From Candidatus Latescibacterota bacterium (GTDB lineage Bacteria; Latescibacterota; UBA2968; GCA-2709665): 64,000 nt of DNA. The translations under genes and the position numbers were made by a program. The notes under the pieces were generated by a model. The model did no database searches. It was not told the DNA's origin and saw only the letters and a program-made list of their open reading frames with translations. Numbering within the stretch: position 1 is the first letter of the stretch; each line of letters opens with the position of its first letter. The DNA is taken from contig CAXXXF010000007.1 of NCBI GenBank assembly GCA_963667175.2, forward strand, positions 64,001 through 128,000. Reading direction: 5' to 3'. Of the stretch, positions 14,178 through 15,957 are shown in pieces.

Positions 14178-14612
14178 TCAAATCAGGTCGATCGCTTCGG
14201 GCACCTGACTCTCATGCGGATGATCGGGCCCCGCGTAGATCCGGACCTTCTTAATCATCCTGCGACCCAGCTTTGTGCGAGGCAACATCCCCCGGATGGC
14301 ATGCTCCAGCACGAACACAGGCTGGGTTTCGAGCGCCCGCTTGAGTGTCTTGGTTTTAAGGCCGCCCGGATAACCGCTGAAGCTCGTATAGACCTTCTGT
14401 TCGGGTTTGTTGGCGCCTTTGACAACGAGCCTGTCGGTGTTTACCACGATCACATGATCGCCGGTATCCACGTGCGGCGTATAAAACGGTTTGTGTTTGC
14501 CCATCAGAATCCGGGCCACCTCGCTCGCGAAGCGACCCAGCACCTTGCCTTCGGCATCAGCCAGAAACCATCTGCGTTCGACGTCGGACTTTTTCGCGCT
14601 CGGCGTATTCAT
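14178..14612 (-). CDS. rplM: 50S ribosomal protein L13
   Basis: GKHKPFYTPHVDTGDHVIVVN, GYPGGLK and GMLP motifs. Confidence 0.98.
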   Translation of the reverse strand: MNTPSAKKSDVERRWFLADAEGKVLGRFASEVARILMGKHKPFYTPHVDTGDHVIVVNTDRLVVKGANKPEQKVYTSFSGYPGGLKTKTLKRALETQPVFVLEHAIRGMLPRTKLGRRMIKKVRIYAGPDHPHESQVPEAIDLI

Positions 14613-14694
14613 AAAATCCGAATGGCGTCCACGTGCACGCCAATTTCGAATTCACCTCCTCTCAACGACGTTTGCGCACAATGTCAAGCCTCAA

Positions 14695-14723
14695 AAGATA
14701 TAGAACACGTTTATTTCTGTCAA
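14695..14723 (-). promoter_or_regulatory. sigma70-type promoter of rplM-rpsI
   Basis: TTGACA-17 nt-TATCTT on the minus strand. Confidence 0.7.
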
Positions 14724-14742
14724 GCACAAACCCTTATTTGAC

Positions 14743-15000
14743 AAAAAATGCGCCGCGATTCGGGAGCCGGCTTTCCGGCCACGTCTCACCACGGCGCATT
14801 GATCGAGACGGCTTCCATCTCACGGCGCCCCCACTCGCATCGCGGGGGCCCGTCGGGACGACGGATCGCCTGTCTTTCGATGGCTGCTTAGATTCGCCAG
14901 GCGCGTTACCAGACGAGATGTTCTCCCGCACCCGGCAGCGCACCTAACGACAGCCACCTCCACTGGTCATATCGCTCATTTGACCACCTCCTTTCCGTGT
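14743..15000 (-). ncRNA. Candidate free-standing structured RNA (multi-stem junction plus pseudoknot, contains a micro-ORF); family not recognised
   Basis: Own promoter; at least eight complementary helices; closing stem followed by a U6 tract; see finding. Confidence 0.65.
14944..14979 (-). CDS. Micro-ORF MSDMTSGGGCR inside the structured RNA
   Basis: ATG directly after GAAAGGAGGTGGTCAA (extended SD) and a TAG stop; translation is unproven. Confidence 0.3.
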   Translation of the reverse strand: MSDMTSGGGCR

Positions 15001-15007
15001 AAGCGAA

Positions 15008-15036
15008 AATATAGGCCACGGAACCGTGGAAGTCAA
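15008..15036 (-). promoter_or_regulatory. sigma70-type promoter driving the candidate RNA
   Basis: TTGACT-17 nt-TATATT; predicted +1 near 15000. Confidence 0.7.
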
Positions 15037-15054
15037 AGGCTTTCTCCAGCCGGG

Positions 15055-15957
15055 TCAGGTCCGCGGATCCAGCGCATCCCGCAATCCGTCTCCGACCAGG
15101 TTAAAGGCCAATACGGTCAGGAAAATGGCGACGCCGGGAAAGGTCAGGACCCACGGCGCGCGCAGTACCAGTTCGCGTCCGCCCGTCAACATGGCGCCCC
15201 ACTCCGGCAACGGCGGCTGCGCGCCCAATCCCAGAAAGCTCAGGCCCGCCGCATCGAGTATGGCCGTCGCCAGGCCCAGCGTGGACTGAACGATCAGCGG
15301 CGTAAGGCAGTTCGGGAGAACCGAAGAAAACAGGATTCGGAAATCGCCGCCGCCAAGCGCTCTCACGGCCTGCACGTAATCCTGCCCGCGCACGGCCAGC
15401 GCCGATGCCCGCACGAGCCGGGCGTACTGCGGCACCGCCACGATTCCGACGGCCAGCATCGCGTTTTCCAGTCCCGGTCCCAGGATCGCGACAATGGCAA
15501 TGGCCAGAAGGATGCTGGGAAACGCCAACATCAGGTCCATTGCCCGCATCAGCGTCTGATCCAGCGCGCCGCCCCAGTATCCCGAGGCCAGCCCGATCGG
15601 AACGCCCGCGACCAGTGCGATCAGAACGGCTGCAACCCCCACCCGAAGCGATATCCGGGCGCCGTGGATCACGCGACTCAATACGTCTCTGCCGAAATCA
15701 TCCGTACCGAACGGATTCGACAGCGACGGCGGCTGAAGGCGGTCGTACAGGTTCTGGGCAAGGGGATCGTGTGGCGCCACCAGCGGCGCGGCAACGGCTA
15801 GCAACAGGAATGCCAACAGGAGTACGCCGCCGCCGGCCGCGAGCCGGTTCTTGAGGAGCCGCTTCCAGAACAGCCCGCCCCATCCGGAAACCGATAGAAC
15901 GCGCGGATCACCGGCTTCCACAACCTGCCCCGCGGCTGTATGGAATGGCCGGTTCAC
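15055..15957 (-). CDS. dppC: Dipeptide/oligopeptide ABC transporter permease
   Basis: FGTDDFGRDVLSR, LSFLGLGAQPPLPEWG and GDGLRDALDPR motifs; GTG start overlaps the dppB stop. Confidence 0.9.
   Translation of the reverse strand: MNRPFHTAAGQVVEAGDPRVLSVSGWGGLFWKRLLKNRLAAGGGVLLLAFLLLAVAAPLVAPHDPLAQNLYDRLQPPSLSNPFGTDDFGRDVLSRVIHGARISLRVGVAAVLIALVAGVPIGLASGYWGGALDQTLMRAMDLMLAFPSILLAIAIVAILGPGLENAMLAVGIVAVPQYARLVRASALAVRGQDYVQAVRALGGGDFRILFSSVLPNCLTPLIVQSTLGLATAILDAAGLSFLGLGAQPPLPEWGAMLTGGRELVLRAPWVLTFPGVAIFLTVLAFNLVGDGLRDALDPRT

Follow-up and report, generated by a model that had tools for sequence, protein, structure and literature searches.

A structured element upstream of rplM in a genome of Candidatus Latescibacterota raises the question of whether it is a gene of its own and, if so, what its RNA does. 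The window that we analysed is a stretch of 64,000 nt (contig CAXXXF010000007.1, positions 64,001 to 128,000 of the forward strand). The element lies at 15000-14743 on its minus strand, and all features below are given as window positions on that strand, read 5' to 3'. An initial annotation had described the element as an unrecognised, independent and complex RNA gene, either ribozyme-like or ribosome-interacting. We show here that it is a real, stand-alone gene that has a promoter and a covarying terminator of its own; with high confidence, its RNA is a relative of Ms_IGR-5, which Rfam names an 'Actinobacteria sRNA' (small RNA). As the best explanation of the whole, we lean towards a stand-alone Ms_IGR-5 homologue of about 258 nt that would act as a translation-gated, ribosome-engaging RNA.

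The RNA gene, delimited by folding energy, conservation and covariation, occupies the stretch between two promoters; it opens with ACACGGAAAGGAGGUGGUC and closes with GCGGCGCAUUUUUU. The first promoter had been predicted in the initial annotation and was found as described, with the -35 box TTGACT (15036-15031), a 17-nt spacer and the -10 box TATATT (15013-15008). It matches the consensus at 10 of 12 positions, and its TTGACTT and TATA were invariant in 22 aligned relatives. Transcription would start near 15000 (ACAC...). At the 3' end, the predicted run of U6 (14748-14743) and a separate promoter for rplM were both present. The latter, TTGACA-17-TATCTT (14723-14695), lies outside the RNA, and its CTTGACA was kept in 14 of 14 aligned relatives. 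These were the only two promoter-like sites in the searched stretch, against 0.5 expected from shuffles. The U6 run belongs to a terminator (14797-14743) whose stem, 14797-14789 with 14758-14750, was 99% paired in relatives with four compensatory pairs. Because a separate rplM promoter follows this covarying terminator, the RNA is an independent gene and not the leader of rplM, as the initial annotation had held. The 258-nt RNA had a minimum free energy of -130.8 kcal/mol compared with -103.0 +/- 5.05 for 200 dinucleotide shuffles of the same stretch (z -5.51), none of which folded as well. Chance origin of the structured element is excluded by its conservation and covariation.

A DNA search detected the element in 40 of 41 related genomes from two families of one order; the only genome without it (G002) is 92% complete. 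Identity was 73-96% across most or all of the query in the same family and 77-84% across the 5' half in the other family. The alignments of the order contained the invariant blocks TTGACTT...TATA, ACAC, GAAAGGAGGTGGTC (within the first ribosome-directed box described below), ATGA, GAC.AGTGGAGGTG.CTGT.G.TAG and the terminator GCGGCGC-T run, and the CTTGACA promoter after the terminator was conserved as well. The homologue search that had been proposed as a check was therefore positive, also for covariation, as 18 compensatory pairs were found. We built a narrow covariance model (R1) from 20 sequences of this order only and a broad model (R2) from a 78-sequence alignment across phyla. R1 recovered the RNA in 52 of 151 genomes of the phylum (17/18 in family f1, 30/30 in f2 and 0/64 in f3), and R2 in 89 of 116 genomes of the class, including 38 of 63 in f3, where the RNA has a compact form of about 93 nt. 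The absence of R1 matches in f3 is a sensitivity artefact, since R2 finds the RNA there.

Loci of the sister groups f3 and f4 (L182-L187) have this compact form: it consists of about 93 nt with the first ribosome-directed box, a mini open reading frame (mini-ORF) and a short helix built on GGGAGGUUGAUCAC, followed by one or two hairpins and a terminator at the 3' side, has no counterpart of the order-specific 3' domain and lies away from rplM. In the one f3 locus inspected, the mini-ORF has 12 codons, TTG...TGA. Five genomes showed a second weak match elsewhere on the chromosome (E 3e-4 to 7e-3; G038 and G089 with R1; G026, G017 and G164 with R2); these could be degenerate extra copies or chance matches.

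The RNA had been called unrecognised, a claim that did not hold. At gathering score, no Rfam 15 family matched anywhere in the 64-kb window, including the models of RNase P, SRP, tmRNA, 6S RNA and riboswitches. Below that score, RF02471 (Ms_IGR-5) aligned over its whole length (model 1-184 of 184) to 15000-14835 with 34.7 bits and E 3.4e-6. The proposed Rfam check was thus answered both ways: a match to a known family exists, but it lies below the curated cut-off. Otherwise, a scan of 14500-15200 at E <= 10 returned chance-level matches only (int-alpA, E 0.6; sR32, E 1.6; CC2171, E 2.1). Reciprocally, R1 matched 78 of 100 listed loci of the motif scan described below end to end at E <= 0.01, among them L108, which scores 185 bits against RF02471 and was matched by R1 at 31.8 bits (E 8.7e-6). 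The end-to-end alignment and the reciprocal matches identify the RNA as a divergent relative of Ms_IGR-5. Judged by these alignments, it is a divergent, enlarged variant of that family, not a callable member of it and not a new class.

Employing a motif scan (AAGGAGGTGGTC, a gap of 10-40 nt and GAGGTGRCTG; one genome per species), we found at least 117 loci in as many species genomes, the record titles of which name nine phylum-level groups. Among the matches listed, 97 were titled Actinomycetota and 20 otherwise: eight Acidobacteriota-type, four Planctomycetota-type, two Zixibacteria, two Deltaproteobacteria/Syntrophobacter and one each from Heliobacteriaceae, Eisenbacteria, Sumerlaeota and Candidatus Latescibacterota, where single odd labels call for caution because the scanned records are mostly metagenome-assembled genomes. 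The listed Latescibacterota locus is near-identical to the sister-family sequences of the window. Seven of 18 motif loci run through Rfam passed the RF02471 cut-off, with scores of 185 bits for Mycolicibacterium, 98.5 for Micromonospora, 85 for Kineococcus and 66.8 for Cellulomonas, and of 55.9, 49.6 and 48.8 for loci titled Zixibacteria, Blastocatellia and Acidimicrobiales. On the strength of these matches, the Ms_IGR-5-like family is much wider than its Rfam name implies. The genes beside its members vary widely between phyla. In three Planctomycetota-type loci (L074, L084 and L124), the RNA lies 130-400 nt upstream of a same-strand ORF of about 340-380 aa, by reading only a putative enzyme of the DAHP/KDO8P-synthase type.

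What the members share is a ribosome-directed core, and the ribosome-binding 5' module of the initial annotation turned out to be stronger than claimed. A first Shine-Dalgarno (SD) box, SD1 (GGAAAGGAGGUGGUC, 14996-14982), sits for the most part as a purine bulge between the helices P0 and P1. Its complementarity to the 16S rRNA tail ...GGAUCACCUCCUUUCU extends over 14-15 pairs without interruption, including one or two G-U pairs. The 3' regions of 16S in this genome have the sequence ...GGCTGGATCACCTCCTTTCT, and we take the mature end to lie at that tail, as is standard. With at most one mismatch, the SD1 14-mer had four sites in the 5.5-Mb genome: this RNA, two sites antisense to ribosomal DNA and one mismatched site. 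Seven nucleotides after GGAGG, in the loop of P1, the AUG at 14979-14977 opens a mini-ORF of 11 sense codons (MSDMTSGGGCR) that ends with UAG at 14946-14944. Within this frame lies a second, invariant box, SD2 (GGAGGUGG, 14961-14954), which is mostly paired in helix P2a; there are 7 nt between its GGAGG core and the last sense codon. The UAG pairs with CUG of CCUGGCGAAUC, and SD2 and the stop together form the 5' strand of the helix P2.

The genome has two 16S 3' regions, L155 (G000:C3) and L156 (G000:C7:185757-188769). Their last ~55 nt are alike except for two substitutions, and they diverge clearly just upstream; they represent either two divergent rRNA operons or assembly contamination (stated as 4.75%).

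We then compared 139 distinct cores, from the own order and from the motif-scan loci among the matches listed. To be scored as having the frame, a core needed ATG, GTG or TTG 4-13 nt downstream of GGAGG and, in the same frame, a stop 0-10 nt downstream of GAGGTGRCTG. An in-frame start and stop were found in 125 cores, with ATG in 71, TTG in 39 and GTG in 15, and with TAG in 115, TGA in seven and TAA in three; sequences of family 1 have an additional TAG that is out of frame, the homologous one being in frame. The frame has 11 codons in 32 cores, 12 in 79, 13 in eight, 14 in two, 15 in one and 17 in three. Start-like triplets in the other two frames occurred in only three and eight of the 139 cores. 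Between the motif and the stop, most Actinomycetota and many others have 5 nt. This order and the Eisenbacteria locus have 4 nt there, and a few others have 6 nt (two Planctomycetota-type loci among them) or 3 nt. Whatever the gap, the start codon has the matching register, and the frame is kept in all three registers of the motif. The peptide varies by lineage, with ...EVAxx in most, ...GGGCR here and ...RWLLQ in the two Planctomycetota-type loci. Across phyla, these comparisons showed that the start, the stop and their common frame are conserved and that the peptide is not; on this basis, the mini-ORF is probably translated.

Thirteen loci (L046, L053, L064, L101, L112, L121, L125, L128, L133, L147, L148, L151 and L153), all but one titled Acidimicrobiia-type, have no ATG, GTG or TTG at the start position. 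By eye, L046, L053, L064 and L112 have CTG in frame with the conserved stop, which suggests CTG initiation or a lineage-specific change in loci of this type.

The fold was examined in an alignment of 35 sequences from the order (A1), with the helices of the initial annotation, with RNAalifold and with a combined model. The combined model had 94.7% paired cells and a covariation score of 0.241, compared with 0.151 after shuffling, and its slid controls were 31-46% paired. As first drawn, the whole structure was 86.8% paired, against 85.6% in column shuffles. In the combined model, the 5' hairpin (14999-14961) consists of P0 and P1 and has a 13-nt loop (14981-14969) containing the AUG. P1 (UGGUC 14986-14982 with GACCA 14968-14964) was paired in all 35 relatives and invariant. 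P0 (CAC 14999-14997 with GUG 14963-14961) links the extreme 5' end to the three bases directly 5' of SD2 and covaries across phyla, where it takes the forms CACG/CGUG, CACUG/CAGUG, CCGA/UCGG, GCAGA/UCUGC, CGCUG/CAGCG and others; in 64 distinct flank pairs, its mean best helix was 4.36 bp, compared with 3.39 +/- 0.11 for shuffled partners.

The long helix P2 (14958-14879) comprises P2a (14958-14950 with 14887-14879; 99.7% paired in the order), P2b (14948-14939 with 14905-14896; 89.4% paired), which holds the stop codon, P2c (about 14935-14932 with 14912-14909) and an apex (14931-14913). In the cross-phylum alignment of 78 sequences, which was fitted to the model, P2a was 96.3% paired with seven of nine pairs compensatory, and P2b was 91.1% paired with compensatory changes at all ten pairs; slid controls were 30-41% paired. 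A 7-nt bulge, AAUCUAA (14894-14888), interrupts the 3' strand opposite the end of the mini-ORF; the family consensus of the bulge is about AAUCCNN, within ...a.ucc..gCAG.caCC.

The 3' half differs from the structure first drawn. The proposed closing stem (14943-35/14756-48) was 86.7% paired, showed no compensatory change and had two pairs broken in 18/35 and 21/35 sequences. It loses to the terminator hairpin, to which its 3' strand belongs. With the closing stem gone, the pairing of GGUGGCUG with CAGCCAUC (14958-51/14886-79) stands, at 100% with one compensatory pair, but as the outer part of the nested helix P2 and not as the pseudoknot that had been proposed. CGCCUG/CAGGCG (14903-898/14872-67) was only 72.2% paired. 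The proposed helix CAUCUC/GAGAUG (14920-15/14821-16) was broken in 13 of 35 sequences, and its 3' partner sits in the order-specific P3 domain (14875-14806), the helices of which (14875-73/14808-06, 14869-68/14812-11, 14865-60/14819-14 and 14853-50/14825-22) were 96-100% paired with eight of 15 pairs compensatory. As an alternative conformer, the helices H1, H3 and H4 of the initial annotation are possible within the genus; they are not conserved across the order, and we rejected this option.

A pseudoknot is nevertheless supported by the alignment, between the apex of P2 and the interior of the terminator (14928-14761). In PK1, CGGGA (14928-24) pairs with UCCCG (14765-61), a long-range helix that had been proposed and that held (91.4% paired, two compensatory pairs). 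In PK2, the conserved partner of CAUCUC (14920-15) is GAGAYG at 14787-82 (97.6% paired, no compensatory change); this genome has GAGACG with one A-C mismatch, and most relatives have GAGAUG. The inner hairpin of the terminator (14778-75/14770-67) was 96.4% paired with three compensatory pairs. By eye only, GCGAAUCC resembles a T-loop or tRNA-like element, and P2a resembles helix 45 of 16S rRNA. Nothing found points to the ribozyme-like character that had been suggested as one option.

Published data on homologues and public sequencing runs bear on expression. Passages of PMC4974804 report significant ribosome footprints on Ms_IGR-5 homologues in M. abscessus and M. smegmatis. A copy from S. 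lividans appears in a table of PMC8079986 as validated by RNA-seq, and the portion of PMC8780764 on S. avermitilis gives the homologue there as a separate sRNA transcription unit. Most public runs in which the stretch occurs have the label sponge metagenome; part of it is present in six runs labelled as RNA. We placed contigs of four metatranscriptomes at a likeness of at least 88%. Run X16 gave a 195-nt contig on 14790-14984 with a depth of 28.9, compared with 2.9-4.9 on the flanks; X20 gave a 232-nt contig on 14805-15000 that ends at the inferred start, together with a 197-nt contig of the sister-family type with a depth of 76.4; and X18 gave a 196-nt contig on 14805-14957. No contig from the four RNA runs lay over 14672-14764, for which they are uninformative. 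We regard these contigs as a weak hint of an abundant short transcript from the locus.

The conserved boxes could also belong to a purely non-coding RNA, in which they would be decoys for free 30S subunits, capturing the 16S tail, or would have a structural or protein-binding role; the start and stop triplets would be kept for reasons at the level of RNA. SD1, with its 14-15 pairs, is far beyond the normal length of an SD, and very long SDs are generally held to slow escape from initiation. The variable peptide fits this explanation too, as does the retention of the stop triplet and its CUG partner as a helix. A constraint on RNA only, however, does not predict a shared frame after changes of 1-2 nt in the spacer between lineages, nor start-like triplets almost solely in frame 0 (125 versus 3 and 8 of 139), and working ribosome-binding sites have the same spacing between GGAGG and the start codon as is seen here (7-13 nt). 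We consider a purely non-coding RNA unlikely.

Rather less likely still is a cis-acting leader or attenuator of rplM-rpsI(-rpsB-tsf), in which read-through at the terminator would be set by mini-ORF translation or by bound L13 or S9. On the same strand, 3' of the RNA, rplM (14612-14178) is followed by rpsI, rpsB and tsf. The search query starts 4 nt before the -35 box, and in 33 of 36 loci from the two families of the order, rplM began 371-589 nt further downstream, counted from the query start; of the remaining three loci, one is cut off by the end of its contig, and two lacked rplM within 1.4 kb. An SD, a short ORF and a terminator, as in a leader-peptide attenuator, are present, the apex of P2 pairs with the interior of the terminator hairpin, and the closing stem, which competes with the terminator, offers a possible antiterminator conformer. 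Yet this candidate is the stem with the broken pairs and no compensatory change described above, and rplM has its own conserved promoter directly after the terminator. Outside the order the linkage disappears: rplM adjoined one of 117 listed motif loci, the Latescibacterota one only, and none of seven loci from other families of the phylum. No Rfam ribosomal-protein leader matched even at E <= 10, and the S. avermitilis homologue is, in the portion cited above, a separate unit. A function as rplM leader may be an added role in this order.

The neighbourhood of the RNA showed further features. The genes rplM, rpsI, rpsB and tsf lie head to tail at 14612-12173, with a short tsf (199 aa), and an oligopeptide-type ABC permease gene upstream of the RNA ends at 15055. 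In the leader of rplM (14694-14613), a strong SD-like GAGAGGAGGTGA lies about 40 nt before the ATG of rplM, with a hairpin, GGCGTGCACGTGGACGCC, between them. A hairpin-forming insert of about 35-40 nt splits the SD from the ATG in 10 of 14 aligned relatives, and the other four, which have no insert, have the SD at normal spacing. The insert may be a looped-out element or an autoregulatory site for L13 or S9.

An mRNA for a small basic protein is highly improbable: a 69-aa ORF (14943-14734; GUG directly after the UAG), inside which the terminator falls, and a 47-aa ORF (14963-14820) are present in the window, and GTG or ATG directly follows the UAG in all 36 loci of the order with the motif found, but in these loci the open frame behind the UAG ranges from 8 to 97 codons, with unrelated sequences after indels, conservation is at the nucleotide level and the indels are not multiples of three, and we rejected a protein gene after the UAG on these grounds.

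Three narrower ideas were also set aside. A sensor specific for RF1 was rejected: UAG is the stop in 115 of 125 cores, but nearly all of these are from Actinomycetota, and UGA and UAA are common elsewhere by eye. A trans-acting anti-SD sRNA with GGAGGTGGCTG targets was rejected for lack of enrichment, as recounted below. Actinomycetota are not known to have CsrA, and the idea of a CsrA-type sponge was dropped for that reason.

For the reading that we favour, a translation-gated RNA that engages the ribosome, the core suggests a sequence of steps. A 30S subunit would bind SD1, and P1 and P0 would have to melt as the AUG enters the P site. Elongation along the mini-ORF would open P2 by unwinding its 5' strand. 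Once the last sense codon had reached the P site, SD2 would stand at the spacing of an initiation SD, the anti-SD could pair again, and the terminating ribosome would be held, leaving the 3' strand of P2 (CUGGCGAAUC...CAGCCAUC) single-stranded. The mini-ORF has 11-13 codons in 119 of 125 cores, about one ribosome footprint, so that ribosomes at the start and at the stop would stand directly against each other. The RNA would then be a translation-gated switch or a ribosome trap whose state reports ribosome or termination activity. As its output, the RNA could expose the 3' strand, sequester ribosomes or, in this order, act on the pseudoknotted terminator before rplM. Translation of the mini-ORF is the firmer part of this model; the switch or trap itself we put forward tentatively. 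It would be speculation to link P3, the terminator pseudoknot and the fixed place before rplM-rpsI to the expression of ribosomal proteins in this order.

Several points weigh against this reading. The match to RF02471, at 34.7 bits, did not reach the gathering cut-off of 45 bits. Related Actinomycetota make up most of the core counts, which are not independent, and the frame argument rests on only some four changes of frame between lineages and on several changes of length that keep the frame. Of the 139 cores, 14, mostly from Acidimicrobiia, have no canonical in-frame start. Invariance makes P1, PK2 and the greater part of SD1 and SD2 silent on pairing. A search for GGAGGTGGCTG targets elsewhere in the genome gave six sites compared with five for the control. 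In the passages concerned, the footprint statement of PMC4974804 spans other structured non-coding RNAs too and is no proof of translation. A 1305-nt contig of run X15 joins the upstream gene to the RNA, and metatranscriptome contigs are blind to transcript ends and strand and may include DNA. Neither the GGAGGTGGCTG sites nor the neighbouring genes, which differ between phyla, point to an output of the switch. In the searched literature, we found no experiments addressing the function of this RNA or of the family.

Within the same literature, which took in neither the naming paper nor any supplementary tables, no published function for Ms_IGR-5 was found, and the passages searched in PMC4633059 and PMC9094748 do not mention the RNA. 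Under the same limits, we did not find in print the spread across phyla, the full-length complement to the 16S tail or a peptide-indifferent mini-ORF with SD2 and the stop in a helix.

More broadly, and as a doubtful proposal, Ms_IGR-5-like RNAs might be an ancient cross-phylum sensor, parking site or buffer of translation capacity, which in this order P3 and the terminator pseudoknot would tie to rplM-rpsI-rpsB-tsf. If true, the scaffold would offer a full-length partner for the 16S tail and a footprint-long frame, with the ribosome held at the stop by SD2, and an RNA apparently built for translation itself would be a new entry among translation-linked regulators. In annotation, a model broader than RF02471 would recover many missed copies. 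Culturable carriers (M. smegmatis and Streptomyces) make the family directly testable.

Among related systems, leader-peptide attenuators (erm-type, trp-type and ARE-ABCF) are alike in having a strong SD before a short ORF, a second SD-like box in a helix that the ribosome can open and a terminator downstream. The RNA of the window differs from them in that no regulated cistron follows directly, the next gene having its own promoter, and in that SD2 lies inside the short ORF and not before a second one. Given the variable peptide, the nascent chain is unlikely to sense an amino acid or a drug. Ribosomal-protein leaders such as that of L13 (RF00555) are likewise structured RNAs upstream of rplM-rpsI, but the RNA described here has a terminator, is followed by a separate rplM promoter and has homologues away from rplM. 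Dual-function or translated sRNAs and attenuator-derived ones such as rnTrpL/peTrpL are also small stable transcripts with a translatable mini-ORF; in comparison, the peptide of Ms_IGR-5-like RNAs is not conserved, and these RNAs are not known to have a base-pairing target.

Ms_IGR-5 itself is the closest system. It shares with the RNA of the window the 5' ACAC, GRAAGGAGGUGGUC, GAGGUGRCUG, the stop triplet, the GCGAAUYC bulge and CAGYCACC in the same order, the helices P0 and P2 with covariation across both groups, and the organisation as a stand-alone gene with a strong hairpin after it. The RNA of the window differs in coming from Latescibacterota and not Actinomycetota, and its mini-ORF reads the motif as GGA GGU GGC, whereas that of Ms_IGR-5 reads GAG GUG GCU. 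It is also about 130 nt longer, owing to the P3 domain and the terminator pseudoknotted with the apex of P2, and its place before rplM is fixed in its own order.

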